This document shows, piece by piece, positions 3,050-40,258 of a DNA stretch of 64,000 nucleotides (positions are counted from its first letter, which is position 1; each line of letters opens with the position of its first letter). The notes beneath the pieces were generated by a model. That model was not told the origin of the DNA. It saw nothing but the letters and a program-made list of their open reading frames with translations, and did not search any database. Made by a program: the position numbers and the translations under genes. This stretch comes from a virus (Duplodnaviria; Caudoviricetes), in IMG/VR virus record IMGVR_UViG_3300020180_000003, positions 14 through 64,013 of that record; one strand, written 5' to 3'.

Positions 3050-3068
3050 GGGTAGCGGAGAGGTGGAC

Positions 3069-3293: not shown

Positions 3294-3356
3294 GAATAAT
3301 TGTTTTGAACTCGTTACAATCATCGTAATGAGTTATTTTTATTTACGGGAAAACAC

Positions 3357-4568: not shown

Positions 4569-4570
4569 TC

Positions 4571-5011: not shown

Positions 5012-5023
5012 GAGGATTTTACA

Positions 5024-5449: not shown

Positions 5450-5460
5450 AGGAGTGATTT

Positions 5461-6705: not shown

Positions 6706-6717
6706 GGAGGCTTTCTG

Positions 6718-7968: not shown

Positions 7969-7974
7969 AAAATT

Positions 7975-10109: not shown

Positions 10110-10585
10110 TCACACTTACGACAAACAGTCGTTTCGATGATTTAGAAAAACTGATTGACCGTATCAATCGCCCTGGCTCCGGCAACACGCGCAAAATCGC
10201 GGACGCCATTACGCAGGGTTTTCAGGACAATTTCACGCGCCAATCATCGGGCGCTGGGCCGTGGGCACGGCTGGCAGCGGCAACGATTACCGACCGGCGA
10301 CGGAAGGGCTTTGGCGCTGGACCAATACTTGTGCGTACGGGCGGGTTACGTGCTGGCTATGTCAGCCGTGGCGCACCGAACCACCATGAGCGCATTTGGC
10401 AGAGCGCAATTGGCCTAACGATTGAGGGAGGCAGCGCAGATGAACGGGTTGCACTATTCCACGAGCGCGGCACTTCCAGGATGCCGGCACGCCCCATCAG
10501 CCTACTGGGTGAGTCGTCTGAGGCGCGGATCATCGATACGATAGAATACGTGCTTGGGCAAGTTGACAGAGAGTTTACGCGCTAA
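10106..10585 (+). CDS. Virion morphogenesis/neck protein (Mu gpG/P2 gpS-like)
   Basis: PWARLAAAT...ILVRTGGLR...FHERGTSRMPARP motifs. Confidence 0.8.
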   Translation: MITLTTNSRFDDLEKLIDRINRPGSGNTRKIADAITQGFQDNFTRQSSGAGPWARLAAATITDRRRKGFGAGPILVRTGGLRAGYVSRGAPNHHERIWQSAIGLTIEGGSADERVALFHERGTSRMPARPISLLGESSEARIIDTIEYVLGQVDREFTR

Positions 10586-15049: not shown

Positions 15050-15390
15050 TGCACTTAGGTGGAACGACAATACCAGATAGTATTGGCAAGAGCGGGCGCT
15101 ATCTCATTAATAGAGAAGTTCTGCGCTACAACGGTGATGGTGAAGCGGTGACGGCCAACTATTCCATATTAGTATGGACATTCCCGCTGATGACCATCGT
15201 TGATTTTACTTGGATTGCTACCACGCTCCTCAGTGGCAATTACAGCGTGAAATACACGAGCGCCAGCCTAAAAAGTGATCTAGGCGCCGACACCAGCTAC
15301 ACCAACGCCGTCGCCTACCGGCCTACCTATGGCGTTGCCACTGGTGGCTGGCTGGCTGATGTCACATGGGAGATCAAGCGCATCCGCTGA
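15049..15390 (+). CDS. Putative distal tail protein
   Basis: Small ORF directly after TMP. Confidence 0.5.
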   Translation: MHLGGTTIPDSIGKSGRYLINREVLRYNGDGEAVTANYSILVWTFPLMTIVDFTWIATTLLSGNYSVKYTSASLKSDLGADTSYTNAVAYRPTYGVATGGWLADVTWEIKRIR

Positions 15391-18056
15391 TGGCTACACT
15401 TACCGAAGCTAATTTTCGCATGTGGATTGGCCCACATCATACACATATCAACTGGTCAACGCTCAATCTTGGCGCGTCTTTCGTGCCTACCACCACGACC
15501 ACCACCGGCCAAATTAGTGGCGCAACATCACTGGTGTTGGCGTCTGCCACCGGCGTCACCGTACCAGGTGGCGCATGGGTGGGGCCAAACGGCAGTGGGC
15601 AGGGTTGGGAATATGAGCAGATCTTGTCTGGCGCGGGCAATACGAAAACAGTCGTTCGAGAATCAATTACCGACCGCGAGCATAACGGCATCCATACGAA
15701 CGGTGCCGCCGTGCATCAATGGTATCCCGGCACCACGAATGACGGCGTGCTGAGCGCTACTGACGAATGTGACGACACGGTGACGACCATCACCTATCGC
15801 GCTACTGTGTCCGGTGTGCGTGCCCCGCAGCACGTCTTACGCAACGGGCATGTCGTTGTAATTACCACATCCACTGATGGCGGCGCGTACACAATCGCGC
15901 TACTTGGCTTTGTGGACTCACCGACGATCACCGACGACATGTACAACAACGCCGAATGGACGCTGAACATTATTTCAGCGGCAGGGCTGGCGGCAGAAAT
16001 AGAAGCGAATGGTGTGCGGGTTGGTGATGCTGATTTGGCTGATGCCGGTAACGCGTCATCCTCGCAGGAACTCGTGCTAGCCTTTGACGAGCGCGCCAGT
16101 GGCGACTACACAGCCGCTGCGCCAGATTTTAGCGCCGCCAGTGCTGTCGATAATGACCTATCGACACTCTGGATTGCTGAGCACTACACTGGCACAGACA
16201 TTTGGAGCACCACAGCGAACAGCGATCCGGAAAATGGCTACCCGCTGCGCTTCTCACAAATCTACATCAATCCACCAGCTAGCGCGCCACCTGGAGCGAA
16301 GTTTATTGAGTTGGCAGTCGTGTCATCGTTAAATGTCGTTGGCTATAACATTTATAGTGCCAACGGGGCGCTACCTTTGGCCGCGTGGTATTTCAAGGGG
16401 CCGGGCGATCTAGAGCCGCGTGCGCGGATTATTCTAGCGGAGGATGCGGCCGTATTCAGTCAGATGAATCCACTAGCCGAGACAGCAGCCATCTACGAGA
16501 ATAAAATATTCTTCGCAGGCATCCAATCGAGTGGCGGTGAATTTTGGTTGCGCTTTGGGCCAACAAATTCGTGGCAAGCGCGCGTGCGCTGGGGCGATGG
16601 CAACGGGCTTGTCGATCATGAGGACTCGCCGTCTAGATCATGGACAGGTTCTACGCTGACTGTACCAGCGTTAGGCCAGACGATGCGTTATCTATTCAAC
16701 CACACAACAGGCACCGCATCAGCCTACTGGCAGACAGGCATGGTGCGTCACGCTGGCTATGATGTGGATGACGACGATCCGATTTGGATACTAAACACGC
16801 TGCCGGGATTGGGCTTGACGCTAGCGCAGGACATTTCATCTGCTCTGACGGGTGCCGGGAAAATCTACATCAACGGCCCCGATGATAAATACAGCACGGA
16901 CGGATTGCCGCCATCTGGCAATGTGATGATTGGTGATGAAATTATTTTCTATGGAGCGAAAACCACCGAATATCTCACCACCCTCACGCGTGCTAATTCG
17001 AGTACAACAGCAGCCGCGCACAAGGCCAAAGATGAGGTATTCGTCCTTGACGGCAGCACACCGACTGACGCCTATCTGATTAAAGAGATCGGGTGGGAGC
17101 GTTCCAACGGCACGATCTACCCAAAGAATTTCGTTGTACGTGCTTCAAATCTGATCAACACACCACGCACGCCGGACCAGGACAATTACACAGACGATTA
17201 TCATCTTGGCTATAGCGGAACTGACAACACTGCCGCAAGCTGGTCAGTACCGCTCTATGGGCAGCGCGTCAAGCATGTATTGATTGAGATCCTCAGCATG
17301 ACGACGAACCCAGCGCGCCCGCGGCTGAATGAGATCAACGCGATTGTCGATCCGGCATTGCACAATCCAGATTTGTGGTTAGCGTCCGGTACGACTGCCG
17401 GCGCATTGATTCAGAAGGTTCTAGAAATGGCAGGAATTCCCTCCGGTGCCATCTCGCACAGTGGCACGCCCGCGATTGCAAATACCGTCACCGCCGATGA
17501 GAACACATGGACCGTCGTTACAGATCTGGCTGAGTATAGCGGGTGTCGCATTACGGTGACACGCGATAGCAAATTCGTCATCACCGCCGATACCTTCTGG
17601 ACGGGCACGCCGTCCATTCTCACAACCTGGAATCGCACCAGCGCGGTCAGCGTAATGCAATCATTCAGCAAAGGCACGCCGGTATCGCAGGTGATATTAC
17701 CGTGGAAAACGCCTAGCGGTGAAGCTGATGGCAAAATTTACTATCCAGAAATGCCGGGGCGCGGTACCAAGCTAGAACAGCCGGAAACACTATACGCGTC
17801 CGAAGCAGCGGCCACGAGTGCCGCGCGGCGTCTCTATTTTATGCGTCTCTACCCGTTTGAGTCAATGGTAACGGCCTCCGGCAGCGTACCAGACAAGCGC
17901 GCTGGCGAGGCACATCAGCTTGTCTGGCAGTTTGCCGATGATATGCAGTCGCTAGATAGGCTGTGTGTTTGTATGTCGGCAGAACACAGACTAGAAAAAG
18001 GCAGTTGGAGCAGCACTTTTAGATTGCGCCAGTACGGGCACGAAAGCAACTTATGA
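15390..18056 (+). CDS. Tail tip/baseplate hub protein
   Basis: About 888 aa beta-rich protein after the distal tail gene; coupled TGATG start. Confidence 0.6.
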   Translation: MATLTEANFRMWIGPHHTHINWSTLNLGASFVPTTTTTTGQISGATSLVLASATGVTVPGGAWVGPNGSGQGWEYEQILSGAGNTKTVVRESITDREHNGIHTNGAAVHQWYPGTTNDGVLSATDECDDTVTTITYRATVSGVRAPQHVLRNGHVVVITTSTDGGAYTIALLGFVDSPTITDDMYNNAEWTLNIISAAGLAAEIEANGVRVGDADLADAGNASSSQELVLAFDERASGDYTAAAPDFSAASAVDNDLSTLWIAEHYTGTDIWSTTANSDPENGYPLRFSQIYINPPASAPPGAKFIELAVVSSLNVVGYNIYSANGALPLAAWYFKGPGDLEPRARIILAEDAAVFSQMNPLAETAAIYENKIFFAGIQSSGGEFWLRFGPTNSWQARVRWGDGNGLVDHEDSPSRSWTGSTLTVPALGQTMRYLFNHTTGTASAYWQTGMVRHAGYDVDDDDPIWILNTLPGLGLTLAQDISSALTGAGKIYINGPDDKYSTDGLPPSGNVMIGDEIIFYGAKTTEYLTTLTRANSSTTAAAHKAKDEVFVLDGSTPTDAYLIKEIGWERSNGTIYPKNFVVRASNLINTPRTPDQDNYTDDYHLGYSGTDNTAASWSVPLYGQRVKHVLIEILSMTTNPARPRLNEINAIVDPALHNPDLWLASGTTAGALIQKVLEMAGIPSGAISHSGTPAIANTVTADENTWTVVTDLAEYSGCRITVTRDSKFVITADTFWTGTPSILTTWNRTSAVSVMQSFSKGTPVSQVILPWKTPSGEADGKIYYPEMPGRGTKLEQPETLYASEAAATSAARRLYFMRLYPFESMVTASGSVPDKRAGEAHQLVWQFADDMQSLDRLCVCMSAEHRLEKGSWSSTFRLRQYGHESNL

Positions 18057-21000
18057 CCTCAGCGACATTCAAGCGCAACGCGAAACGAATCAAAGACGCC
18101 ATCGCTGCCAAGACTGAGCCGAAGCAGACCACATCCATAGCGGGTGCAGTCGGTGGAACAAAACTGTTCATCGGCGGGCAAATATTCCCAGGCTCTATCA
18201 CAGGCACGCAGGAAGTTGTCAACGCAGGCCGTCCAGCGGCGGCGTCCTATGTGGCAAAAAATGGTGGCGGTGGCGGCAGTGTTTCCGTAAGTAGCGGTGG
18301 CGGAGCAGCATCTGTTTTGCCAACCACCGTGTATCTGCCGCGTGACGGCTCATTGTCCATGACTGGCAGTCTGGACATGGGCGAAAATAGTATTATCAAT
18401 GTTCAACGCGTAGACGGGCGCGACTTGCAGGCTGATGGCGTTATCCTGGACGGCATGAAAAACGCCGATGTGTTGGTGCTGACCGCCAACGCCGATTACA
18501 CGAATGAGCGCGTGTTGACTTTCAGCGCAGCTTTTACGACCGTGGATTCAGGCGCAAATAACGCATACACTGTTAGCATTGTGACGCCGCCAACATTGTC
18601 AGTTTCCTCAACCAACAACGGCACCACACGGTCCCATGCGATTACTACGTCAAGTAACCCGGGGGCGGCGGCTAGTATCCTGGCATCCAGTGCCGCGGGC
18701 ATGTTGACGCTACCAACATTCACGGCCAGCACGAAAGTGCGCACGCCACTACTGGATACGGCGTCAGGCAATATGACGATACAGCCAGCCGGTAATTTGA
18801 TTATCCGTGCTGGCGTCGGTGTTAGTCCGATTGCGCTTATTCCGTTTGAGCGTGATGCCGTATCCGAAACACGCATTGGATCGGATGACTATGCTAGCCA
18901 AACGACAGGCTGGGCAATCGAGCATTACGGCGGGGGTGACTTCCGCTATCTCTACACTGACGAAATGCACGCGAAGGTATTCATTGCCGATTTGGAGCAA
19001 GCGCTAGCCGGTGGGCAGATCATTGCCAAGTCGGTGACGTTGCTGTTCCTTGTGTTTACGGCTCCGGCAGCGGGTGGCACTACAACATTGACGGTTCGCG
19101 ATTTGCCTAGCGCCACGGGGATGGCCGTCTTTCAAAATGGCGATATGATTCGCCTGCGCAACTTTAGCCGTGCTGGTGGTAGCCTGGACATTTCCGATTG
19201 TTGGGGTATTGCCACGCTCGATACTAGCTATGGGACAGGCGGTTTCGACTCTACCACCAAATCGCAACGATACACCTTTGTGCGATCTAGCGGTAGCTAT
19301 GCGGGCCACATGACGACGGGGACTACAGTGCAGCCGGAAAGTATTGTACTGGACTACGGCATCAGTGGCAATGGCTACTATGAAGTCAATGCGATTGATG
19401 GTTACTACGCTGCCAACTCACCTTACGCGCAAATCGTAACCTGGACGGTTCATCCCGCAGCTACGGCACCAGGAACCGGGCTAAAGATAAAGGCGCGTCT
19501 TGGCAACCTAGTAGGCATTACCGATGTTAACCTAAACCCTACGGGCTACGGGTTGTATTCTGAGAATACCTATTTAAAGGGCGACTTTCTCACCGGCGAT
19601 GGTGTGATTCGCATGTACAACGCGACCGGCATCAATATTCTACAAGACGTGTGGAGCAGTTGGGACAACAAGCGCGCTGTGCAATGGTGGCCTGATATTA
19701 CGAGCGTGTCCGGCGATCCATCGTTGAGTATCTACACCGGCAAGGTTGTCGGCGGCTTTACAGCCAATCAGAATTTCAGTTATATCGACGCTAATCCAAC
19801 GGGCAATGTTTTGGCTGGGCTATCACTCTCGGCGTTCGGACAAGGTACGGCATCGGATGCCATTGTCTACATTGAAGGCGGGAGTCAGTCGCTTGGCACG
19901 ACACCGACAATTACACTGACGGCGACGACTATCGAAGCGGTTGGCACACTCGCCATCACCGGCAACATCACCGTCACGGGCACTGTTGACGGCGTGGACA
20001 TATCCGCATTTAAGGCAACTTACGATAGTCACACCCATGACAGCACGTATCTAAAATTGATTGGTGGCACGCTGACCGGCACCTTGACCAGTCGTACGGT
20101 GGCACCATCAGCGAACAATACCTATGATATTGGTACAACCGGCAACTACTTTAATTATGCCTATATCCGTAATCTCGTAGTCGATACGGTGGTCGGCACG
20201 CCTACCTATAGCCATACCCATGCAGCCGGTGACATTACCAGTGGCACGCTGGCATCTGCAAGAATCCCCGACCTCTACGTTTTGACGGCGGGCGACACAA
20301 TGAGCGGCGCTCTGGTCATCGATGCAGACACCGGCACCACATCCAATTATGTGCGCTGGCTGACACAGACATCAACTGGCAAAGCCTGGGACATGATCGG
20401 GCGCGCTCACGACTACGCCACTAGCGCACAGCAGAACGACCTACTACTGACCTACTACGATGGCGCAACCATTTACGTTGCGCTGCAATTCGACAGCGGT
20501 ACGCGGGTGGCTGATTTCCTCAATACGCCAACGGTTGCAGGCACGGCGGTCAGTCTGTCCACGCATAATCACGACGCGGCTTATGTGCCGGTAGCGCGCA
20601 CTGTCACTGCTGGAGCGGGATTGACTGGCGGCGGCTCTCTCTCTGCTAATATCACCATCAGCCATAACGACACAAGCACTCAGGCATCCGTCACAAACAC
20701 CACTTCGCTTATTCGGGATGTCACGCTCGATACATACGGACACGTCACCGCGCTTGTCTCCGCGACTGTCCTATCAATCGCTCCCGAATTGCATCTTGGT
20801 GCTAGTTCCACAGCCGGAACATTGGACTGGAATGACGTGTCCAACACAAAGCCCAATAGCGGAAGCACCCTTCTGAGGGGGACTGCGGCTAACGCGATGG
20901 GCGGATTGGGTTATTATCACCCTATCAACTTTGAGTATGCCACAAAGAACGGCACGGGCAACGTCACGCAATGGGCAGTGCCCTACAGTAATGATTCATT

Positions 21001-29580: not shown

Positions 29581-30027
29581 CTATCGTTGCCAAAACAGCA
29601 TTCTGTCCAGCCGCAGATGGTCCAGATCCTGCAATCCCTGCCCCACCAACACCAGCGCCCAGAGTAGTGCCGCTTCGGGCATCCAGAGTAGCGTAGCTGC
29701 AATGGGCAGCCAGAACAGGTACAGGAAGCGCTCAACCGTGCCGCGTAGCGTGTGGCTGCGTCCACGGTGCGGATTCAGTTTCGCGTAGGGCCACCAGAAG
29801 GCCACCCACAGCCAACCGAACAGCTTGAAACGGCGCAACATCCGACGTTCTTCTATCGTGATCCGGTGATGATCAATGTCGGGCGTCAGGCAATGCCCAA
29901 CCCATGCACCCACGGCAATCGCCAGCGGCCACGTTTTGCCGGCTACTACGAACCAACCCACGCACAGGCAGGTGATGATAATGCCGTTCCGCAACGTGCT
30001 GGATGAGTGTAGTTTGCCAGAGGACAT
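29581..30027 (-). CDS. Membrane metal-binding protein (DUF2227-like)
   Basis: MSSGKLH, LTPDID, WWPY..L.PHRGRSH, DH motifs. Confidence 0.75.
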   Translation of the reverse strand: MSSGKLHSSSTLRNGIIITCLCVGWFVVAGKTWPLAIAVGAWVGHCLTPDIDHHRITIEERRMLRRFKLFGWLWVAFWWPYAKLNPHRGRSHTLRGTVERFLYLFWLPIAATLLWMPEAALLWALVLVGQGLQDLDHLRLDRMLFWQR

Positions 30028-30305
30028 TAGGCCATCACCACGCGCTGCACACCGAACTGCATTCGATACGCGCTATGACTGTCGGCGTGCATCGCTGGTT
30101 GACGGCGAAACACCGTGAATGGCACCGGCCCCAGCGCCATGCCTAGGATATTGTGCAGCGCATAGCCAGCGATGCACGCCGACAGGAGCCGCATGGTGAC
30201 CGGTAGCAGCCGCCCGGCATCGGTTGACGTGATGTGCGTCTCTCTGGCAAGCAGAACAGCGACAACGCCGATGATAATAGTCAAAACGTACTGGATGATT
30301 GTCAT
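30027..30305 (-). CDS. Small membrane protein
   Basis: Two hydrophobic segments; coupled ORF. Confidence 0.55.
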   Translation of the reverse strand: MTIIQYVLTIIIGVVAVLLARETHITSTDAGRLLPVTMRLLSACIAGYALHNILGMALGPVPFTVFRRQPAMHADSHSAYRMQFGVQRVVMA

Positions 30306-30745
30306 TTCTGTTTACCCTTCTTCGCGTTTCGCCAGGCATTCTTGCCTTCGCTGCAACTTGATTCCAACCACGGCTGGCCTGCCTTCCACGCTGGTGGCAT
30401 CTGTCCGGCGTGACGTGCTGCCCAGGCCTGATTGCGCTTGTCGATGTACGGGCCATAGACGCGAAACGTACCCGTTCGTAGGATCAGGTATTCAGCCCAT
30501 GACGCCGCCTTTGCGGATACTGTGACCTCGGCCACTTGCAACGCCGGAACCATGCGCCCTAGGTGGTCAACTTGCTCGGTATACTCCTTGAATCCGTGAA
30601 TCACCACCCCATACGGCTGTAATGCGCCTGTGATTTGGTCACGTGCCGGGCAACAATATGGCTTGGCGACAATGATTGTGCGCGTAGCGCTGCCACCGAA
30701 CGCTGATTTAATTTCCGTGACCAATTCACCAAACATCAGCGCCAC
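30302..30745 (-). CDS. Hypothetical protein
   Basis: Coupled ORF. Confidence 0.55.
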   Translation of the reverse strand: MALMFGELVTEIKSAFGGSATRTIIVAKPYCCPARDQITGALQPYGVVIHGFKEYTEQVDHLGRMVPALQVAEVTVSAKAASWAEYLILRTGTFRVYGPYIDKRNQAWAARHAGQMPPAWKAGQPWLESSCSEGKNAWRNAKKGKQK

Positions 30746-31203
30746 TCCGTGAAAGTCTGATCTTCGGCGTCATCGTCATCACTATCCATGTCCCACAGAG
30801 CAGCCGTTGCGGGTTGCGCCAATCTGCTCTGGGCGTCCGTCAACAGCTTTGCCTGCTGTGTGGCTAGACTATTGACGCGGCGTGCATCCAGCACGGTCAG
30901 TTGTGCCGCTGCACGATTCATGGCTGATTCACCCTGACTCATAGCCTTGAAGGATTGCAAACGGTATTTGTCGATCTGTGCGTCATTCGCATTGAATTTG
31001 GTTATGGCGTCCAGTGTCATTTTTTGATTCATGTGGGCGAACATGGCACCACCCGCAAACACAATCACGCCGACCAGTGCGAAAATCACCAGCACGGTAT
31101 AGTCTTTGCCGATTGCCCCGTCTAGCCACCACACGGCTAGCCCGATGAAACCCAGCACGGCTGCTAATTTTAGAAAGTCCCACGTCCCATCATGGTTGTG
31201 CAT
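30736..31203 (-). CDS. Two-TM membrane protein
   Basis: MHNHDGTW start with GGAGG RBS; two hydrophobic helices. Confidence 0.6.
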   Translation of the reverse strand: MHNHDGTWDFLKLAAVLGFIGLAVWWLDGAIGKDYTVLVIFALVGVIVFAGGAMFAHMNQKMTLDAITKFNANDAQIDKYRLQSFKAMSQGESAMNRAAAQLTVLDARRVNSLATQQAKLLTDAQSRLAQPATAALWDMDSDDDDAEDQTFTEWR

Positions 31204-31327
31204 TGCTATCCCCTCCCCATTCTCTGATGGGCAAACAACAACCCGATGAATGTTATCGACAGAACAAGCAGCAACCCCGCCTGCCCAGCCGATAAACTCA
31301 CGACCTGATTTACCCAGAGGTCGATCA

Positions 31328-32698
31328 TCAGTCACCCCCAGCCGCGCGGCGTGGCAGACGAATAATTTTGGTATCGACAACGGGCTCGATCCGATCCAAT
31401 GCCTGATTGATTTTTGCCGTCCAGGTATTCCCCGCAAATGGCTTGCCAAACGCTGCTTGTGACGCCGCGCTTTTGCTCATGCCAGGAACCCACACGCTGC
31501 GCAATCTAGCCACCATTCTGCTGATCTCATCCTCTACTGACGGCTCTACTGACGGCTCTACTGACGGCTCTACTGACGGCTCTACTGACGGCTCTACTGG
31601 TGGCTCTACCGCACTGCTCACACGAGTGAAAACAGGAAATTCCTGTGCAGTAGAGAAAGCAGTAGAGGTCACACCACGCCACTTGCGCCCAATGCGCGTA
31701 ATCAATGATTCGCTGGCTACTTCATCCAACAGGTACGACTGGTAGCGGATGCAATCCAGGCCCGTGACATACAAAAACGCACCTTTGCCGGGCAACAGTT
31801 CGGCGTGCGTGCCCGGCCGGCCGGCTGCACAACTGGCGGCGCTTGCATCAGCGACCAACCCAACACACCGCGCTGAGAAATTATTTTTGATGGTTGAATC
31901 GCCCATCGCTTTGCCGGTCGGATGCTGGGTTGCAACCAACAGATTGATGTTGGCAGCTCGTCCCTTGCATACCAGTTCACCAACCAAACGCATACAATCA
32001 GCGTCGGCGGTCAGGTCGGCGTACTCGTCGATCACAATCAACAGGCGGGGCATGGCGACACGTTTAGCCTGTCGGCGTGCCATTTCATTGACGGCATCGG
32101 CAAGCACGGTTGAGGCACGGCTAATGGTTGTCGCCAGTACAGTGGCATGGGGCAATCTAGCCAGTGGCACAAGGTCAGTATTCTTCATATCGATCAACAG
32201 AATCCGCAGATCGTCGGGCGACGTATTCCAGCACAATGGCAATAACATATTCAGCATTGCCACACTCTTGCCCGCGCCGGTTGTGCCTGCTATCAGGACA
32301 TGCGGCGCATCGCTGAAACTGTGCCATAGGTCACGCGCCGCGCCGTCGTATGTGCGTCCCAGTAGCATCGAATGTGGTTCGCCGGTCAACGCTTCGGCAT
32401 TCCATAGCAGCGGCTTGCGGTGTGGATGTGTCACCTCCAACCGCAACGGGTGACGCAACAGGCGCACCAGGGTTTTCGTCCGGCGCTTGTTGCTGATAGA
32501 TTCGCTAATCTCCGGTAGGCGGCGCTCGATGTCGCTAATCGCCTGCCCTGCGACGGCACGCAGGCCGTAGATGACAAGCTGATCGCCGCCGACCACGGCC
32601 CAGGCTGGTTTCGTTCCGGCTTTCAGTTTGAAAGCTCGGAGCGTGGCGTTGATTGCCGAAATTTCCGACAGCAGATGTTGGCGTAGTTTGTCGTTCAT
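31328..32698 (-). CDS. FtsK/SpoIIIE-family ATPase (DNA translocase)
   Basis: APHVLIAGTTGAGKS, LIDMK, LLIVIDEYADL, GRAANINLLVATQHP. Confidence 0.92.
   Translation of the reverse strand: MNDKLRQHLLSEISAINATLRAFKLKAGTKPAWAVVGGDQLVIYGLRAVAGQAISDIERRLPEISESISNKRRTKTLVRLLRHPLRLEVTHPHRKPLLWNAEALTGEPHSMLLGRTYDGAARDLWHSFSDAPHVLIAGTTGAGKSVAMLNMLLPLCWNTSPDDLRILLIDMKNTDLVPLARLPHATVLATTISRASTVLADAVNEMARRQAKRVAMPRLLIVIDEYADLTADADCMRLVGELVCKGRAANINLLVATQHPTGKAMGDSTIKNNFSARCVGLVADASAASCAAGRPGTHAELLPGKGAFLYVTGLDCIRYQSYLLDEVASESLITRIGRKWRGVTSTAFSTAQEFPVFTRVSSAVEPPVEPSVEPSVEPSVEPSVEPSVEDEISRMVARLRSVWVPGMSKSAASQAAFGKPFAGNTWTAKINQALDRIEPVVDTKIIRLPRRAAGGD
31531..31609. repeat. 12-bp tandem repeat (VEPS)n in the FtsK linker
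   Basis: (ctctactgacgg) x about 6. Confidence 0.9.
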
Positions 32699-33219
32699 GC
32701 TCCGGCCTCCTCTGACTTGCTGCGTGGCTTGCGCTTGCGCCGGTTAGCCTGTTGCTCTTTGGCCGTGGCCCATCGGCAATTACCCGGGCTGTACCCTTTG
32801 TCATTGTCGATACGATCTATGCTCTTACCTGGTGGCCGTTCCCCCATGTCTGCGTAGAAATTCGCAAAGCTAGTCCAGCGTTCGCAAACGGCTATGCCGC
32901 GTCCCCCGTAGTCGGCATATTGTTTGTGGTTTGAGTTAGTGCAGCGCTGGATCACATGTGCCCATGTCACGTAAGTGCTGGTGCCGGTCAGCCCGTGCGT
33001 GGTGCTGCGCTCGGTGCTGCTCTCGATACGGCGCTCGGCATTAAGACAGCCACATCTGCGCGTAGCCCCGCCTTGCAGGTTGTCACCCCTCACTGTGGTC
33101 TCCTGTCCGCACTCACATCGACACACCCAGCGGGCATTGCCGCTACTGGCATTCGCCGCCCTGCTGATGACGGTCAACCGGCCGTGGTTTTGGCCGGATA
33201 TATCAATTAGCTTTGTCAT
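32695..33219 (-). CDS. HNH homing endonuclease-like protein
   Basis: GRLTV..WVCRCECG, YGGRGIAVCERW, SIDRIDNDKGYSPGNCRWAT..Q..N. Confidence 0.9.
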   Translation of the reverse strand: MTKLIDISGQNHGRLTVISRAANASSGNARWVCRCECGQETTVRGDNLQGGATRRCGCLNAERRIESSTERSTTHGLTGTSTYVTWAHVIQRCTNSNHKQYADYGGRGIAVCERWTSFANFYADMGERPPGKSIDRIDNDKGYSPGNCRWATAKEQQANRRKRKPRSKSEEAGA

Positions 33220-33434
33220 AGTGTCACCTTGCGCGGGAACGTAGCCACCGCGAACACGGCTGTAAGCGCCAGGCCAACCCATAAAGTCGTTGGGATAGCC
33301 ATAATGGACACCGCGACGGCCACCACGGCCACGATAAGCAGAGTGACAAGCAGCAGGGCTTGCAGCAACGTAGCCTGCCATGCTGTGGCGTCACGTACAA
33401 CGTGGGACGTTCCAAATACGATAGTCGATAGCAT
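33216..33434 (-). CDS. Small hydrophobic membrane protein
   Basis: MLSTIVFG start with GGAGG RBS. Confidence 0.55.
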   Translation of the reverse strand: MLSTIVFGTSHVVRDATAWQATLLQALLLVTLLIVAVVAVAVSIMAIPTTLWVGLALTAVFAVATFPRKVTL

Positions 33435-33512
33435 ATTGCCTCCGGTAAATGGATTATGGAGGGCAAACAAATGCCCACCAAAACGATAGAAGATTACCGT
33501 TAGATGGGCATG

Positions 33513-33600
33513 TGCTATACTTGGTATAGCCTGCCCGTTAGGTCTGCTCTAACGGTTATGGGTTACAGGGTGGATAGGTGTTTGCGCACCTGCTACCCTG
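33513..33600 (+). ncRNA. Putative antisense regulatory RNA (extended -10 promoter plus two hairpins)
   Basis: TGcTATACT at 33513-33521, then CCGTTAG/CTAACGG and CAGGGT..AGGTG/CACCT..ACCCTG stems. Confidence 0.4.
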
Positions 33601-33746
33601 GTACAATCTAGATACTGAGTCGAACGCTGCCAGACTTAACATCGGGTAGGCTGCGCAGTCGTGACATTTCTGCCTTAGCATCGGCCTCGTTCACGAGTTT
33701 TGAATGCTTCGTGCCCCGCATTGATTCCCACACGATTTTGATTTTT

Positions 33747-34001
33747 CTATTCGCCATGATTTCCCCCCCGACTATAGCGCTGCTTGATATGGCTAGCTAT
33801 CCCTAGCAGGCGCAACGATTCAGTATATTCATTGCCGGTGAACTTGGTTGCCAGTGCCCCGGCATTCAGCGACGTAATGTCTCCATCTTTGCCGACAATT
33901 GCACGTAACTTGTGGCCGACTCTAGTCGATAGCCGCACAGCGCAATGCGCCTGTATGCGCCGGTACACTTTTTGGCACTGCGTAGGCTCCGGTCGGTTCA
34001 T
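33747..34001 (-). CDS. Hypothetical protein
   Basis: Coupled (ATGA) to the upstream ORF. Confidence 0.5.
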   Translation of the reverse strand: MNRPEPTQCQKVYRRIQAHCAVRLSTRVGHKLRAIVGKDGDITSLNAGALATKFTGNEYTESLRLLGIASHIKQRYSRGGNHGE

Positions 34002-34258
34002 AACTGTTTTGCCTTATCCGCAGTCAGTGCCGCCATCTGTGCATGTAACCGCATTAGCTCACCCTCTAGGCTTTTCAGTCGCCCCCCTAGTCCTTGTACC
34101 ATCAGGCGCAATGACTCAACGTCCAGGCCCGTTACATCCTGCCCGGCGTCAATCGAGCGTAGCAGATTAGACAGGTAGTCGCCCCTTTTGCGCTCACCTC
34201 TGGCCAACTTGTTGAGTAACTCCCCGATCCCATCGTCTACCGACAGGTTTAGACGTTC
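33998..34258 (-). pseudogene. RHH (CopG-like) gene apparently lacking its start, abutting the last CRISPR repeat
   Basis: Frame reads ERLNLSVDDGIGELLNKLARGERKRGDYLSNLLR from the first base after the repeat; in-frame TAG inside the repeat. Confidence 0.55.
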
Positions 34259-34470
34259 CCCCTAACCCCTGCGCGTGTGGGGCGACCGTTTGCCCCGGCC
34301 AATGACAATTCCTGTGCAGCCCCTAACCCCTGCGCGTGTGGGGCGACCCTCGATACGTTGTTCGTGGTTCTGCAACGTTGCCCCTAACCCCTGCGCGTGT
34401 GGGGCGACCTGTTTCCAGGTCAACGAGTTTGGCAGACGCATCCCCTAACCCCTGCGCGTGTGGGGCGACC
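34259..34470 (-). CRISPR. Mini CRISPR array: 4 identical 29-bp repeats, 3 spacers of 32 bp
   Basis: Repeat (minus strand) GGTCGCCCCACACGCGCAGGGGTTAGGGG at 34259-34287, 34320-34348, 34381-34409, 34442-34470; unique spacers; 61-bp period as in type I-E. Confidence 0.97.
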
Positions 34471-34597
34471 CCTATTACGGCAGTCACCCGCAAGGTTATC
34501 CACGCTTACAGGGTTCCTAGTTCATCGGCGCACTATCGTGCTGTCCTCCCTAGGCCATTTTAACGACCACGGTGTAGGTACTCCCGCAGTCGGCGCA
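34471..34597 (-). ncRNA. omegaRNA/tracrRNA-like scaffold with anti-repeat
   Basis: Stems CGACUGCGG/CCGUGGUCG, CCUAG/CUAGG, GCAC/GUGC; segments AACCCUG..GCGUG and GGGUGACU complementary to the repeat. Confidence 0.75.
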
Positions 34598-35770
34598 TTA
34601 GGCTGCGCTTGCCAATCTAACGGCCTCATTGCGAATATTGATTGCAGCGTTGCCGTCTCGTTCGTGTTCAGCCCCACAATCAGGACAAGCCCAGGTTCGT
34701 ATTGACAATGGCAGTTCCTTGACCTTTTCACCACAATTAGAACAGGTCTTGCTGCTGGCGAACCAGCGATCTACAGCGATGACCTTGCCGCCAACAGAAA
34801 TAGACTTGTATTGCAACTGTAGGCGCACTTGATACATGCCTGCATCGCTGACGGCTTTGGCTAATCGGCGATTCTTGACCATGCCTTTGATATTCAGGTC
34901 TTCCACTCCAATCAATCCATATTCGCCAACGATTTCCGTTGTCATCTTATGGGCATTATCCCTGCGAACGTCAGCAATGCTTGCATGTAGCTTGGCAATT
35001 TCCAGTTTTCGCTTTTGGTAGTTTCTCCCCTTCACGTCTGCATCACGCATTCGCTGAAACGACCGTTGCAGTTTTGCGAGCTTGCGTTGATGTTGTTTTA
35101 GCGCCTTGGGGTTGCGATAAACCACCCCGTCGCTAGTGACGGCCCGATACCTGATTCCCATATCAATCCCGACCGTCTTCGATATGTCGGCGGTCTGTTC
35201 AAGGTCGGCGACTTCGGACTGTACGGCAAGATACCAGTACCCGCCCGTGTAGCTGACGCGTCCGCCCAATACTTTCCCTTCAAAGCGCAAAGGTTCGGCC
35301 ATATTAACGGCCCCGTCTGGGCAGCGTGAAATCATGACGCCGTGACCGTCAAACTTCATTCCGCCATTGTTAGCAAGTCCAAAGGACGGCGTTACCTTGT
35401 CGCGTGACTTGAAGCGCGGCCAACCAAACGGCTTCCCGTCCTTGCGCGGTTTCCAGCCTACTGGTGCCTTCAAGGTGCCTTTTTTCCTTAGATCAAAGTA
35501 TCGGCTGATCGAAGATTGTAAATCTTGAAAGGCGTACTGATTGGCGTAGGTTTGTACTTCTGCCACAAAAGGTGCAAATTCTTCCTGATTGCGCCGACGA
35601 TTAAACTCCTTCTTTAATTCTAGAATTTTGGGCTTCTCGCCACGTGTTAACCCGTTGTTGTATTCAGCCAACGCCCAGTTCCATGTAAAGCGGGCGATTC
35701 CTGCGCACTGCCAAAAGTAGCGAGCCTGTTCGTCAGTTGGGTTCAATCGTATTCTGTGCGCCCGAATCAT
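34598..35770 (-). CDS. tnpB: TnpB-family RNA-guided endonuclease (Cas12-like, CRISPR-associated)
   Basis: N-terminal HTH (IRLNPTDEQ), RuvC-I GIDMG, RuvC-II VEDL, Zn finger CSNCG/CPDCG, RuvC-III RDGNAAINI; catalytic D-E-D intact. Confidence 0.95.
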   Translation of the reverse strand: MIRAHRIRLNPTDEQARYFWQCAGIARFTWNWALAEYNNGLTRGEKPKILELKKEFNRRRNQEEFAPFVAEVQTYANQYAFQDLQSSISRYFDLRKKGTLKAPVGWKPRKDGKPFGWPRFKSRDKVTPSFGLANNGGMKFDGHGVMISRCPDGAVNMAEPLRFEGKVLGGRVSYTGGYWYLAVQSEVADLEQTADISKTVGIDMGIRYRAVTSDGVVYRNPKALKQHQRKLAKLQRSFQRMRDADVKGRNYQKRKLEIAKLHASIADVRRDNAHKMTTEIVGEYGLIGVEDLNIKGMVKNRRLAKAVSDAGMYQVRLQLQYKSISVGGKVIAVDRWFASSKTCSNCGEKVKELPLSIRTWACPDCGAEHERDGNAAINIRNEAVRLASAA

Positions 35771-35831
35771 CTAGAACTCCTATCCACAATATCGCCAGAA
35801 TGACTGTATGCCACCTAGATTTGATTTTATA

Positions 35832-36050
35832 CTATATTGCCGTGTATTCCGGTGTTGCGCTTGTTTCTAGCGCCTCTATGCGCTGTTCATGATTATCTAG
35901 TCGTTTCGCAATTGAGTCGTGGTGTCGATAATCACGAACAAACATTTCCACCAACGCGGCGCGTCCTTTGGTGCCTTCCACTTTACAAATCTTATCCATT
36001 GCATCTATCGTCTGTTGAGATAATCGCAATGACAAAGGTTTATTTGCCAC
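35832..36050 (-). CDS. RHH-type DNA-binding protein
   Basis: GTG start with GGAGG RBS; KPLSLRLSQQTIDAMDKIC...RAALVEMFV. Confidence 0.7.
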   Translation of the reverse strand: MANKPLSLRLSQQTIDAMDKICKVEGTKGRAALVEMFVRDYRHHDSIAKRLDNHEQRIEALETSATPEYTAI

Positions 36051-36089
36051 ATCGCCTCCGTAGTCCGTTCGTATCACCATTTGGGCTAC

Positions 36090-36119
36090 ATTCTAACACG
36101 ACTCCATCCCCCGTGTCAA
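36090..36119 (-). promoter_or_regulatory. Sigma70-like promoter for the RHH-tnpB-scaffold-array unit
   Basis: TTGACA-N18-TAGAAT with TG extension. Confidence 0.65.
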
Positions 36120-36529
36120 GCACCAGTTTTCAATGGTGTCCGTTCTGTGCGGTTGTAGCATTCGTTGATGCGCGCCCGCAATGTTTCGCGCTCGGCATCG
36201 CTCAGTCGGAGCCAGGGTCGCACGCTTTGAGCGATGGTCGTTTCGATACGCGGTGCGGGGCGTTTCTCTGGGCGTGGCGACGCTCTGGCTTTTTTGCGCA
36301 GTGGCGGCTGGCGCGGCGTCCCGGCAATCTCCTGCTGTGTGCGGCGTTTCACGCAACCGCAACTCCGCACTTTGCCTTTAACAATGTCGGCGGCGGCCAC
36401 GTTGCGCGTACCGCCACAATCGCAGAGGCATTCCCAGAGGATGCCGCCGCTTTTGTTTTTGCCGACCACGCGCACGGCTACCAGTTTCGTCGATCTCATC
36501 CCTGCTACGTTCAATGACTGCCTGATCAT
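36116..36529 (-). CDS. Protein with HNH-endonuclease-type N-terminal Cys domain
   Basis: LWECLCDCG...VRSCGC resembles the N-terminus of 32695..33219. Confidence 0.55.
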   Translation of the reverse strand: MIRQSLNVAGMRSTKLVAVRVVGKNKSGGILWECLCDCGGTRNVAAADIVKGKVRSCGCVKRRTQQEIAGTPRQPPLRKKARASPRPEKRPAPRIETTIAQSVRPWLRLSDAERETLRARINECYNRTERTPLKTGA

Positions 36530-37137
36530 TTCGTTTGCCCCTTTCGATACAATTTGAAACAATTACTACACATCGTTGTCAGCGGCCACGCCCGTCGATC
36601 CCTGGCCGTCTGCGCTGTCACCCACTGCGCTTGCACCGACCGACCGCAAAGGCCCACGGTGCCCATATCGCGGCTGATGTGGATACGTGCCCCATTTCGC
36701 CCGATTAGCGCCCATTGCGGAGGCGCCGGAGGACAGACGCAGCCGTTGATGCACCCGCAGTCAGAACACACGATATCGGCGGCGGGTAGCTGTTCGCCGT
36801 AGACGTACCACGGCGCCGCAGCTAGTGTTTCGATATCGGCCAACACTGGCGCAAACTCCATGGAGCGGCCCACATTGTTGGCCGCGAATAGGCCGCATAA
36901 CATTTCGGCATAATGCCGGCTCGCGATCGGATCGGGCCCAACCGGGATGACTGGCACACACCGGCCTGGATGTTGGGCATTGGTGTAGCGTCGGCCCTCC
37001 TTCTCCAGCGACGTACCGCCACTAATTGCCGACAGAGGCCAGCGAATTTCGACAATCCAGAACAGCCGGTGCAATTCGTTCTGACGAGATGCCCCGGCGA
37101 TGACTTTGCGCTGGAAGGTGTTAGTCTGGGTTGACAT
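36526..37137 (-). CDS. Hypothetical Cys-rich protein
   Basis: Coupled ORF. Confidence 0.55.
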   Translation of the reverse strand: MSTQTNTFQRKVIAGASRQNELHRLFWIVEIRWPLSAISGGTSLEKEGRRYTNAQHPGRCVPVIPVGPDPIASRHYAEMLCGLFAANNVGRSMEFAPVLADIETLAAAPWYVYGEQLPAADIVCSDCGCINGCVCPPAPPQWALIGRNGARIHISRDMGTVGLCGRSVQAQWVTAQTARDRRAWPLTTMCSNCFKLYRKGQTK

Positions 37138-37895
37138 CAGTTATACGCTCCGTCCCCGGCATCCTGTAGCATGTCGGCGTTTGGTGTGCAGCGCTCTGTT
37201 TGCGCCGTCGCCTTCGCTGCGAGTGCCGCTTTGATTGCCTCCAACTCGGCAACCTCGGCTTTGCGTTCGGCGGCCAGCGTTGCTAGCGCTGCTTCTAGTA
37301 TGGCGATCTGTGAGTCCTTCGCTGCGAGGGCTGCTTCGTACTCTTTTCGCATTTCAAACACTGGTGTAAGTAGATCGTAAATCTGGTTATCGCTCCATAG
37401 TGTTTCAGTCATTTTGCAATTCCCCTTTTTATGGTGACAAGCATGTAAATCGTTCGCGTCCGTGACGTGGGCTAGCGAATCAACAATCTGCTGCAAGTAC
37501 TGAGCCGTCGCGAATCCTGTCGGTATGCGGAACACACGGTATCCGAGTAGCGTGGCGGTGTTGTATTTTACGCAATCCTCGACAAATCCTTTTCCCCGTG
37601 TGTGCCTTCCGCCTGTCCATACTCCGCCCTCGAGTTCAATCAGCCATTTGCCTGTCGCTGTTTCACAGTAATAATCCGCGTGCCACTTTCGCCACTCACA
37701 GAAGCGAAACTCCGGCGTAAGCGCTGGCCCGCCCAATGTGCGCCACACCGCCTCGAACTGCATAGCGAAGTTGCGGCGCTGCTCCGCCTCTAACCGCTTG
37801 CGGGCCTGCGTCTTGTCTTCCTTCGGCGGCGCGGCTAGGTGTTTGTTGGCGGCGTATACTTCGTCGCTGACCTCAACTCCGAATAGATGGGGCAT
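37137..37895 (-). CDS. PD-(D/E)XK endonuclease-like protein (DUF559/Vsr-like) with coiled-coil tail
   Basis: EFRF..RKWHADY...IELEGGVWTGGRHTRGKGF.ED..KYN.A...GY. Confidence 0.75.
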   Translation of the reverse strand: MPHLFGVEVSDEVYAANKHLAAPPKEDKTQARKRLEAEQRRNFAMQFEAVWRTLGGPALTPEFRFCEWRKWHADYYCETATGKWLIELEGGVWTGGRHTRGKGFVEDCVKYNTATLLGYRVFRIPTGFATAQYLQQIVDSLAHVTDANDLHACHHKKGNCKMTETLWSDNQIYDLLTPVFEMRKEYEAALAAKDSQIAILEAALATLAAERKAEVAELEAIKAALAAKATAQTERCTPNADMLQDAGDGAYN

Positions 37896-37918
37896 GGGTT
37901 GGCACCTTCTTTCGCTGA

Positions 37919-39322
37919 TTATCGATTTAGGCTAGTCACGTCAAACCCAGCCGGCAAGTCACCAACACGGTAGCATTCACCACGAAACACTTGGTGGAAT
38001 GTTTTCGTAGCACCTCGGTTTTGCTTGTCAATGCGCAGCGTAGCGATAGGCGAATAGTCGCCTTCTTCGGCAATCTTGGTGGGACCGTCCCACTGCCCGC
38101 CGACGCCGACAATCTGGCGCGTGAGAATCATCACAAGCTGCGCCCGTTGCGACTTTTTGCCACTGCCATCAATCGATTGGCGAGTCTGGATCTTGCCCTG
38201 CTCCTGCATAGACTTGTTGCCTTGCGTGGCTGTGAAGATCGGAATACCGGCTTTCTCGGCAAAGTTCTTAAGCATGTTCATGTTGTCGCCTTCGCGCAGA
38301 TACTGATTATTGCCGTACAATTGTAGCTGTCGGCGATCCGGTTCGCATTTGTCGATGTAGTCCAGTACGACTGATTCGCATTCACCTTCGTCTGCCAACT
38401 TCTGCAACTCACGAATCACCTCGGACATTGACCAGCCCGGAGCGTGCGTGTAATGCAGATTATCTGCCCAATCACTCATTTGCCGTTCCGCTTCCAACAT
38501 AGCTGCAATCTGCTGTTGCGTTAGGTTGCCATCTTCGATAGCAGCTAGTGGCACGCTTGAATGTCGAGCCATGCGCCGGTCCAGCTTATACTGGTGATCA
38601 TCTTCCAAGTGGACCATCACAACCTTGTTGTTGCGTTTGGCCCAATGTTCGGCAATCCATTCCAGATAGGTTGATTTGCCTACGCCGTCCGGCGCTGCGA
38701 GCACGGCCACCAGTCCAGACCGTAATGGACGAACGTAATCATTCCATGACTTCCACGGCCAGTTAAAGCGCTGAGACAATCCCGACTCGGCCTCTAGTCT
38801 GCGATCCTTGACTGACTCACGGTGACTGTCGATTGTCTGCCAACCGTACAGCGTTGCACCACGATCCGTCTTAGGGGCCAGCGTCTGCAATCGTTCCTGC
38901 GCGGCCGTAAATAATTCATCAGGTGCCGGATTCGACTTGAGTTCGTCTACCATCCAGTAAGCGAAGTCTCCGGCGCTACGGAGCCAAGCCAGGCGCTTGA
39001 CAGTACCAGCGTAGGCCACGGCGCGCCGTGCATCGCCAGACAATCCAGCCACAAAATCTGCGCTAACGATTGTTGCGATCTTGTGTTCACGCGCCATGTT
39101 ACTGCACTCGGTAGCGATAGCCTGTGCGTCAATCGCCTCTACGCTGTTGAGTAAACTTTTAATCGCCAAAAAAATCAGCTTGTGCTTATCGTTGGCAAAA
39201 TCGGCAGAGTCCAGCATTTCAGCCAACTGTGTTGCTTGATCGACGTTGTCACGCATAGCTGCCAGTGTAGTTGATTCGGCTGTCGGGTGAATCAGGTTTT
39301 CAAAAACAGGTTTTGTTTTCAT
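37919..39322 (-). CDS. dnaB: Replicative DNA helicase
   Basis: DnaB N-terminal domain, APDGVGKST Walker A, VVLDY, ATQ, KQNRG. Confidence 0.9.
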   Translation of the reverse strand: MKTKPVFENLIHPTAESTTLAAMRDNVDQATQLAEMLDSADFANDKHKLIFLAIKSLLNSVEAIDAQAIATECSNMAREHKIATIVSADFVAGLSGDARRAVAYAGTVKRLAWLRSAGDFAYWMVDELKSNPAPDELFTAAQERLQTLAPKTDRGATLYGWQTIDSHRESVKDRRLEAESGLSQRFNWPWKSWNDYVRPLRSGLVAVLAAPDGVGKSTYLEWIAEHWAKRNNKVVMVHLEDDHQYKLDRRMARHSSVPLAAIEDGNLTQQQIAAMLEAERQMSDWADNLHYTHAPGWSMSEVIRELQKLADEGECESVVLDYIDKCEPDRRQLQLYGNNQYLREGDNMNMLKNFAEKAGIPIFTATQGNKSMQEQGKIQTRQSIDGSGKKSQRAQLVMILTRQIVGVGGQWDGPTKIAEEGDYSPIATLRIDKQNRGATKTFHQVFRGECYRVGDLPAGFDVTSLNR

Positions 39323-39334
39323 TTCGCCTATCTC

Positions 39335-40258
39335 CTAAATCGTTGCCATGTTGATACCAGTAACGTCCGTAACCGGCTTGCGATTAATCAATTCCTGAGA
39401 ATCACGCCAGCCATGCAAATACACGTCCAGCACGTTCGGATAGGATCGGAATGCCTTAATCGAACAATCTGCCGTCACCTGTCGCCACTTGTCCAAGTCC
39501 GTCGCCTTTTCGTTCATGTCCCGGATTTGCGCGGCTGTCGGTACCCAGGCGAACGACTCTTTCCAAATCTCAATCTGTGTTTTGCCTGTGCCTTTCGGTA
39601 ACAACCCTGCTTGAACCTGTCTAGGATCAAAAAGCGTTACCGTGCCTCTGATTTTTTCCGGTTTATGATTTGGTTGAGGAGCGCTTGGCGGCGTTTCCGT
39701 TGGCGGCGGCACTTCGCCGCTATTACCTTCTACTTCTACTTCCCTTAAACTTCTACTTACCTTAGGCTGGACTTTATCCGGAGTTAGTCCGGAGTTAGTC
39801 CGGAGTTTGTTTGGATTAGGTTCGGCACTTGTCCGCTGCTTGATTTCTTGTTCGTTTTTTACCTGCGCCGTAGGTGTATGACCAGTCAGTAGAAGTCCGG
39901 ACGGTGAGCGCGTGTAGCCTGGTGGTGGGCCGAAGCCACTAGGTGCCTCGCGGTCGTAGCGCATTCCTTGCTGATTTTTGGCAAAGCCTACGAAAAACAG
40001 AACAACATCATCTTTATCTTCGTAGGAGACAACAAGACCTGCTGCAACTAATTCATCAATTAAGCCAGATATTTTAGGCATCAGTTCGGATCGGCGTGGA
40101 CATGTCTGGGCCCACAAAAGCATTGGATCACCAAAGATTAAGCCGTCTCTGTCTAGGTGGGGAATCGTCTTTAGATAGACAAGCTCTGCTTCCAAGCTGA
40201 GTCCATTTAGCTTTTTGTCGGTTGCTACTGACTGACTTAACATTCTACCGCGTGCCAT
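39335..40258 (-). CDS. Replication initiator protein
   Basis: MARGRML...DRDG wHTH N-terminus, upstream of dnaB, internal iteron-like repeats. Confidence 0.75.
   Translation of the reverse strand: MARGRMLSQSVATDKKLNGLSLEAELVYLKTIPHLDRDGLIFGDPMLLWAQTCPRRSELMPKISGLIDELVAAGLVVSYEDKDDVVLFFVGFAKNQQGMRYDREAPSGFGPPPGYTRSPSGLLLTGHTPTAQVKNEQEIKQRTSAEPNPNKLRTNSGLTPDKVQPKVSRSLREVEVEGNSGEVPPPTETPPSAPQPNHKPEKIRGTVTLFDPRQVQAGLLPKGTGKTQIEIWKESFAWVPTAAQIRDMNEKATDLDKWRQVTADCSIKAFRSYPNVLDVYLHGWRDSQELINRKPVTDVTGINMATI
39777..39809. repeat. Three 11-bp iteron-like repeats (putative origin)
   Basis: TCCGGAGTTAG x2 plus TCCGGAGTTTG inside the initiator gene. Confidence 0.6.

Follow-up and report, generated by a model that had tools for sequence, protein, structure and literature searches.

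We describe a short array of CRISPR type (clustered regularly interspaced short palindromic repeats) that lies downstream of a tnpB-like nuclease gene in a phage genome, and one spacer of which resembles, in frame, a head-morphogenesis gene of the same phage. The DNA is a stretch of 64,000 nucleotides (nt), called the window below, which spans positions 14 to 64,013 of the IMG/VR virus record IMGVR_UViG_3300020180_000003 (Duplodnaviria; Caudoviricetes); the record measures 64,013 base pairs, carries direct terminal repeats and is graded complete, and the window is close to the whole of it. The source genome is that of a tailed phage, and we find that S3 (34410-34441, minus strand), the spacer closest to tnpB, truly belongs, as one of three spacers, to a CRISPR array on this complete genome. 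For the question of where S3 came from, we give about one chance in two to a copy taken from the protease-scaffold gene of a sister phage that has not been sampled. For the question of which enzyme uses the array, we lean somewhat towards the adjacent, catalytically intact TnpB.

The array occupies 34259-34470 and consists of four identical 29-nt repeats (34259-34287, 34320-34348, 34381-34409 and 34442-34470; plus-strand sequence CCCCTAACCCCTGCGCGTGTGGGGCGACC) alternating with three mutually unrelated spacers of 32 nt each, S1 (34288-34319), S2 (34349-34380) and S3, so that the period is 61 nt. These are the properties by which a CRISPR array is recognised: at least three near-identical direct repeats of 23-50 nt with unique spacers of constant length between them. 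Its strand is presumably the minus strand, which we take from the neighbouring genes, all of which run on the minus strand from 29581 to 40258. A 29-nt repeat, a 32-nt spacer and a 61-nt period make up the classic type I-E geometry, and a common length of exactly 32 nt in three unrelated spacers suggests the work of an adaptation complex more than a duplicated segment of an omega-RNA. Iterons and a coding tandem repeat were considered and rejected, since neither fits the exact 29/32 spacing together with unrelated spacers; a reading frame of 56 amino acids (aa) that runs through the array, compared with proteins of 30-98 aa, yielded no candidate with three shared words.

A preliminary description of this DNA, made from its letters alone, had held that S3 matches a recoded homologue of the phage's own prohead protease gene. 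When S3 is read on the minus strand and realigned to the phage's own site at 4267-4298 (plus strand), we recover the 22 identities in 32 positions claimed there, with mismatches at spacer positions 5, 6, 7, 11, 18, 20, 23, 26, 30 and 32, the cluster at guide positions 5-7 included. The translations are also right: base 4267 is the second codon base within the open reading frame (ORF) at 3357-4568, and the gene there encodes DASAKLIELEP (residues 304-314), to be compared with (x)ASAKLVDLET for the spacer, which had been written (D)ASAKLVDLET. All the factual statements of that description thus hold, and to them can be added that third codon positions, of which the site has 11, account for six of the ten mismatches (hypergeometric P = 0.050), and that two further mismatches constitute a switch between the two serine codon families.

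How surprising is such a match? Judged by bases only, it is marginal, for about 3% of random 32-mers equal it somewhere in the genome: a score of 22/32 or better somewhere in the 64 kilobases (kb) was reached by 11 of 300 and 92 of 3000 shuffles of S3, and by 99 of 3000 natural 32-mers of matched GC content taken from unrelated loci. The picture sharpens when the peptide is scored as well. When at least 22/32 is required together with an in-frame BLOSUM62 score of at least 34 (the observed value is 34), only 2 shuffles and 3 natural 32-mers qualify, out of 3000 each, a joint chance of about 0.001 per spacer and about 0.003 for three spacers. The best matches of S1 and S2 in the genome, 19 and 20, are at background. 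The resemblance of S3 therefore exceeds what chance usually produces, though not overwhelmingly.

These numbers leave room for an explanation in which S3 comes from an unrelated source and its likeness to 4267-4298 is a coincidence in 64 kb, helped by a helical segment rich in Ala, Leu, Lys and Glu. We regard this as quite possible, at slightly less than an even chance. The base-only rate of about 3% speaks for it, as does the lack of any genome similarity for S1 and S2; against it stand the rarity of the joint base and peptide score in both null sets, the enrichment at third positions (P = 0.05), and the fact that the resemblance falls on the clade-specific D-A-S residues. The remaining arguments on this point come from the gene that holds the site and from its relatives.

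The gene at 3357-4568 (plus strand, 403 aa) lies between the portal and minor-head genes and the major capsid gene. The 403-aa product has no Pfam match, and its only matches in PHROGs are families of unknown function. An AlphaFold model built from 28 homologues (mean predicted local distance difference test, pLDDT, 79.9) has a mixed alpha/beta N-terminal domain extending to about residue 205, and its top fold match in the PDB, by Foldseek, is the T4 capsid assembly protease gp21 (5jbl; probability 0.99, E 0.012, template-modelling score normalised to the target 0.55). His89 and Ser148 are invariant in the 28 homologues, and the gene order, portal, 403-aa gene, major head (PHROGs neighbours), fits a prohead protease. 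Residues 214-373 are predicted to be helical, and the S3-like site falls inside one predicted helix of 60 residues (281-341). The label 'prohead protease' is thus reasonable on the strength of the model and its gp21-like fold, with the qualification that Pfam returns nothing and that the matched site belongs to the helical, scaffold-like C-terminal part, outside the protease domain. A profile of the 28 protease-scaffold homologues run against PDB sequences gave chance-level matches to V-ATPase subunit E (E at least 0.065). As a separate observation on this family, Cys158, Cys170 and His172 are invariant and Cys161 is nearly so (residues 158-172), a set that suggests a zinc site within the protease-like domain; we know of no description of a zinc site in gp21-type proteases.

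If S3 was taken from a sister phage, a perfect protospacer should exist in a homologous protease gene, and this is the check that had been proposed in advance. No such match is present in IMG/VR, the JGI metagenome contigs, INPHARED or PLSDB. The exact sequence of S3 has no match in IMG/VR, nor have those of S1 and S2, which find nothing in the phage genome either; a degenerate pattern that allows every synonymous coding of ASAKLVDLET, the exact spacer included, has no match in IMG/VR or in the JGI metagenome contigs. The whole array, searched by blastn (word size 11, E up to 10), matches five records in INPHARED and four in PLSDB, all at E of 0.7 or more, and the one of these records that we inspected, H6, is an intergenic chance match without an array.

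Relatives of the gene tell a similar story. IMG/VR holds five DNA relatives of the protease-scaffold gene, four of which (L005, L006, L007 and L009) share 93-95% identity with it over the gene and match S3 at 23/32, and the fifth of which shares 67% and matches at 18/32 at the aligned position; all five are fragments, 7-33% complete, and their lack of tnpB is no evidence either way. At the polymorphic sites the close relatives shift towards S3, reaching a value barely above the phage's own 22/32. Among these four, the S3-like site shows 1-5 differences; the most variable 32-nt segment of the gene lies just upstream of it, at 4231-4262, with 10-11 differences.

At the protein level, 118 homologues, drawn from 5.8 billion cluster representatives, include none in which the spacer peptide occurs within two substitutions, the best matches (8/11) being the phage's own allele and P0002. 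The spacer's last residue, Thr, is found in 0 of the 118 at that position, which is Pro in 103. The clade-specific D-A-S residues are rare in the family, with Ser in 2/118 and Asp in 7/118, and therefore the spacer resembles the allele of this clade rather than the family at large. In relatives at 80% and 73% identity the peptide is already altered, and so a source that kept DASAKL with four of its six codons changed is somewhat unexpected.

The empty searches for all three spacers, the absence of the peptide and of its terminal Thr among homologues, and the altered peptide in the relatives at 80% and 73% identity all weigh against a sister-phage origin, and most of them can be counted for coincidence: no better allele is found among the 5 DNA relatives or the 118 protein homologues, Thr stands where 103 of those homologues have Pro, and a peptide that is kept while its codons change is hard to square with the variability of the segment among relatives. 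Weighing the joint chance of 0.003 against these oddities and the empty searches, we arrive at about even odds between a sister-phage origin and coincidence. The earlier claim that the spacer came from a related phage accordingly keeps its in-frame match, its third-position enrichment and its conserved peptide, and is short of the perfect protospacer.

We now consider the effector. Immediately upstream of the array in the direction of transcription, on the same minus strand, is a tnpB-like gene of the RNA-guided nuclease family (34598-35770, 390 aa), whose product matches the Pfam families HTH_OrfB_IS605, OrfB_IS605 and Cas12f1-like_TNB, all above cut-off. Residues 4-387 align to ISDra2 TnpB at E 4e-46; to LaTranC (E 4.5e-27) and to Cas12n/Cas12f entries the alignment covers the C-terminal part only, and in PADLOC the product matches Cas12u4/Cas12f models. 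D203, E290 and D372 align with ISDra2 residues D191, E278 and D361, the last of which we take to be catalytic. D191A and E278A are dead variants of ISDra2 TnpB (PMC8612924). In the alignment, the RuvC catalytic residues of the phage TnpB are intact. The GC content of tnpB (50.8%, compared with 53.8% for the genome) is uninformative.

The layout makes it plausible that the phage carries its own effector in TnpB. Gene and array share one strand, with 127 nt between the end of the tnpB stop codon (34598) and the start of the first repeat (34470, minus strand), and this non-coding stretch (34471-34597, minus strand) is a candidate omega-RNA or tracr-like scaffold (after tracrRNA, trans-activating CRISPR RNA). 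Within it, 34481-34521 pairs imperfectly with the adjoining repeat, and the fold of 34442-34525 reaches -34.2 kcal/mol (z-score -1.89, with 10 of 200 shuffles as good). In the modelled structure, the first repeat folded on the 40 nt upstream of it can give the succession of a tracr-like part, a loop, a part like a CRISPR RNA (crRNA) and a guide.

In fairness, several observations count against a functional tie between the gene and the array. A scan of the 430 nt upstream for duplexes with the repeat gives no significant pairing (74 of 500 shuffles are as good). The protein is a canonical IS605-type TnpB with apparently mobile relatives at 78% identity, and the 29-nt repeats are shorter than the 32-38 nt of the TranC clades. 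The nearest bacterial elements have their right end 138 nt past the stop, and therefore a full omega-RNA scaffold could end at about the place where the first repeat starts, without including the repeat. A CRISPR-like array adjoins tnpB in one of 56 viral loci (L047, a distant one; seven were flagged by the repeat scan), and a confirmed array is found in none of 80 bacterial loci (L071 being flagged by the repeat scan only), counts that do not take in the DNA of the 60-78% TnpB relatives. PMC10691335 asks of a conserved association that it occur in at least two clusters; the association here is a singleton so far.

The viral locus L047 is worth describing in its own right. At L047:72-1141 (IMG/VR) lies a tnpB-like gene, cut by the start of the contig, with 39% identity over query residues 163-380, and 177 nt downstream of it an array with at least three copies of an AT-rich repeat of 37-41 nt, spaced 73-74 nt apart; on its sequence, this is a separate phage-borne locus of TnpB plus array. 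Two further loci, L015:6591-6932 and L057:2900-3058, on IMG/VR contigs from one metagenome, have a palindromic repeat of 39 nt in common; its copies are spaced 51-68 nt apart and lie some 2.5 kb downstream of a tnpB homologue in each, and they may be either an array or protein-binding sites.

The apparent mobility of TnpB relatives feeds directly into a different account of the locus, in which the targeting logic is kept but class 1 Cas proteins of the host (type I-E-like) use the array, as with the virus-borne mini-arrays already published, and tnpB is an insertion sequence that landed between a ribbon-helix-helix (RHH) gene and the array and takes its right flank as guide. What is known of the element is as follows. 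The nearest proteins (78% identity) sit on contigs of 1.3-1.7 kb, as expected for multicopy insertion sequences. In the phage we find no tnpA (by Pfam), no second tnpB copy and no recognisable transposon ends. The nearest bacterial tnpB (L066, about 2500-3750, in genome G001, a metagenome-assembled genome of Caldilineaceae) is 43% identical to the phage gene and is accompanied in the same genome by two more copies, one at 82% identity and one, tail-only, at 74% (L066, L147, L148); a 12-nt motif common to all three marks where they end, 138 nt past the stop codon, and defines the right end of that element. Among 251 genomes of G001's class, tnpB at E of 1e-80 or less occurs in G001 itself only. 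When the right end of the G001 elements is run as an nhmmer profile against the phage, homology is lost at the end of the ORF, and a MAFFT alignment of the non-coding tails is too weak to locate the end of the phage element.

With these data in hand, we think a host class 1 effector unlikely, though it has real arguments on its side. The 29/32/61 geometry of type I-E implies an adaptation complex, which the phage is without; TnpB is canonical and its nearest relatives look mobile; the 138-nt right end would put the end of the phage element about 11 nt from the start of the first repeat; and the distance from the RHH stop to the array, 1361 nt, is about that of the shortest contigs that hold the relatives. 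Insertion of tnpB by a pre-existing array is, moreover, an accepted possibility (PMC10691335). The repeat itself argues the other way, for its core occurs in no array that we could find, though the host may lie outside the genomes sampled. The 17-nt core, required twice with a gap of 40-48 nt, has no occurrence in the GTDB species genomes or in IMG/VR; the full repeat, with up to three mismatches, is in none of 401 genomes of G001's phylum and is absent from G001; and the 20-nt core has one chance match in the JGI metagenome contigs (L150), a single copy with no array around it. Neither the Rfam CRISPR-DR families nor any other family match 33900-36200 at E up to 10. Nor does the repeat form a stable stem-loop, its fold being no better than shuffles on either strand (57/200 and 80/200) and the candidate stem of the minus-strand repeat carrying two mismatches. 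Finally, that an insertion should by accident have come to lie some 10 nt or less from the single array of a 64-kb genome is unlikely, since by our estimate about 1% or less of viable sites would qualify.

It could also be that the array guides no cleavage at all, and is either a decaying remnant or an RNA decoy for host Cas proteins (an RNA anti-CRISPR), in which case the spacers would be irrelevant. Phage-borne repeat decoys have been described, none of the spacers has a findable target, and the phage lacks cas adaptation and class 1 genes: among its 83 ORFs, Pfam and the best 25 of 79 PADLOC families reveal neither cas1 or cas2 nor any other cas family besides the TnpB/Cas12 type. Four identical repeats with all spacers at exactly 32 nt speak against decay, however, and a decoy should mimic a host repeat, of which there is none in the genomes and metagenome contigs searched; the adjoining tnpB, too, is intact. 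We consider this reading improbable.

Returning to TnpB as the effector, we can draw up a mechanism, in which the origin of S3, transcription, loading, cleavage and the target are all things that we infer. A transcript spanning the RHH gene, tnpB and the array would be made, with the array as the 3' tail of the tnpB message. TnpB would bind the 3' region of its own transcript, and TnpB is reported to process its own mRNA (PMC10278001). The scaffold would be the 127-nt stretch plus the 29-nt repeat, resembling an omega-RNA or a tracr-crRNA pair; the repeat-proximal S3 would guide in cis or after splitting, and S2 and S1 would guide once their repeats had paired with the tracr-like stretch. Cleavage would then strike a sister phage that enters the cell with a perfect protospacer next to the appropriate flanking motif, which would amount to superinfection exclusion between phages. 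The carrier's own site would be spared by its ten mismatches in 32, four of which (5, 6, 7 and 11) lie in the repeat-proximal third, where seed pairing would be required.

The upstream end of this putative unit offers some leads. A small ORF of 82 aa (35832-36080, minus strand) matches Pfam RHH_1 at E 0.0072, below the curated cut-off, and has no PHROG match; it could regulate the locus, and pairs of RHH/MazE and TnpB have been proposed as archaeal toxin-antitoxin modules (PMC10691335). A sigma-70-like promoter candidate at 36090-36119 (minus strand) has TTGACA, an 18-nt spacer and TAGAAT, with TG before the second hexamer, and agrees with the consensus at 11 of 12 positions. It could drive the RHH gene, tnpB and the array; promoter-like sites in the region are no more numerous than in shuffles, which makes this one a lead only. 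Since the genes of 29581-40258 are all on the minus strand and the promoter candidate stands ahead of the RHH-like ORF and tnpB, the array is probably transcribed as the tail of the unit.

How does the locus compare with systems already described? Medvedeva et al. (2019, PMC6858448) have described mini-arrays in virus genomes whose spacers are directed at close relatives, the carrier having a mutated version of the orthologous site, which agrees with the preliminary description's statement that mini-arrays aimed at related viruses are established. The phage locus is like them in having a short array (three spacers here), a virus without adaptation genes, a related virus as the proposed target and a mutated orthologous site in the carrier. 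It differs in that their spacers match co-occurring relatives at or near 100%, whereas our best relative stands at 23/32; in that their repeats and leaders are host-like, whereas the repeat here is in no host or metagenome array searched; and in that a nuclease gene adjoins the array here only.

Effectors that descend from TnpB, have a short array downstream and come without adaptation genes go under the names V-U6 to V-U45 and TranC (PMC10691335; Jin et al. 2025 via PMC13565253). In TnpB-derived type V loci the gene is followed by the array on one strand (Altae-Tran et al. 2023, PMC10691335), and the tracrRNA of Cas12f and TranC lies in the 100-200 nt between effector and array (bioRxiv 10.64898/2026.03.27.714800). 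The same 2026 preprint gives the repeats of TranC clades as 32-38 nt and describes CauTranC9, a TnpB-sized TranC in a Caudoviricetes genome with an array against phages. The phage locus shares with these systems a TnpB-sized RuvC nuclease, a short downstream array on the same strand, a gap of 100-200 nt and the absence of cas1, cas2 and cas4. It departs from TranC in its 29-nt repeats (CauTranC9 being compared by description only), in that its protein matches ISDra2 TnpB over the full length and LaTranC over the C-terminal part only, and in that here the association of gene and array is a singleton and the tracr and anti-repeat are candidates.

ISDra2 TnpB (Karvelis et al. 2021, PMC8612924) is close to the phage protein in domain set, length and aligned RuvC residues, and likewise has a non-coding RNA region directly downstream of the gene. 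The ISDra2 omega-RNA consists of a tracr-like part, a loop, a crRNA-like part and then the guide (Nakagawa et al. 2023, PMC10097598), which is the shape we propose for 34471-34597 plus the repeat plus S3. ISDra2, however, has one fixed guide from the DNA that flanks the transposon and no repeats, whereas the phage locus has a three-spacer array, no tnpA and no second copy. With type I-E arrays the locus has repeat length, spacer length and period in common; unlike them it shows no strong repeat hairpin, the phage encodes neither Cascade nor Cas3, and a matching array was found in no host. The locus therefore works like the known kinds rather than being a member of one: a near-perfect target was found in no sampled relative, and the gene-array association was not seen to be conserved in related TnpBs. 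What is unusual about it is the pairing of a canonical TnpB with a 29/32 array.

This pairing allows a more far-reaching scenario, in which a canonical, recently mobile IS605-type TnpB, carried by a phage, would be turning into a CRISPR effector. A split of its omega-RNA would have made a repeat of the final 29 nt, a host adaptation complex would have extended the array in trans with the 29/32 geometry of type I-E, and the head-assembly gene of sister phages would be the target. Taken as a whole, we hold this chain of steps to be doubtful. If it did take place, a type V-like system would have arisen here independently, smaller and less modified than any so far, and with repeats in the style of class 1.

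More modest consequences follow from the separate parts. If S3 does come from a sister phage, this is a bacterial-phage case of CRISPR-mediated warfare between related viruses, and the weapon may be carried complete, guide array and nuclease together taking up about 1.6 kb. Should TnpB be the user of the array, the locus would be a nearly unmodified step on the way from a transposon nuclease to a type V CRISPR effector, would bear on how arrays became coupled to TnpB, whether by omega-RNA duplication or by insertion next to an existing array, and would be a very compact candidate editor. If, on the other hand, the match is coincidental and tnpB is a passenger insertion sequence, we are looking at an ordinary orphan mini-array.

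The junction between tnpB and the array deserves a word, since the observations above depend on it. Contigs of the probable source run X1, made by an independent assembler, carry all sampled words of 33700-36100, and because this second assembler's contigs carry the whole tnpB-array stretch, the junction is not peculiar to one assembly; run X1 is a possible source of the same DNA, and so is not independent in that respect. Over 3300-4700, X1 yields a phage contig without differences and one contig of 357 nt that touches 4305-4340 only, and its contigs contain no variants at the S3-like site (4267-4298).

The rest of the genome is in keeping with a tailed phage. PHROGs identifies the portal (525-2036) and the major head protein (5461-6705), and Pfam matches over the 83 ORFs include the phage capsid family, a DnaB-like helicase, SSB, ERF, FtsK-like and methylase families. 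A megablast of 1-20000 against INPHARED gives no match, and the helicase (37919-39322), queried in IMG/VR, finds no relative there. The FtsK/SpoIIIE-like protein (31328-32698) has, in its translation, about six PSVE/VEPS tetrapeptide repeats close to the C-terminus. Further phage ORFs match a pentapeptide-repeat protein (E 1.5e-57), an alginate-lyase domain, a dCTP deaminase-like family and the N6_N4_Mtase and Dam methylase families, and in PADLOC there are matches to the SspH and mad8 models.

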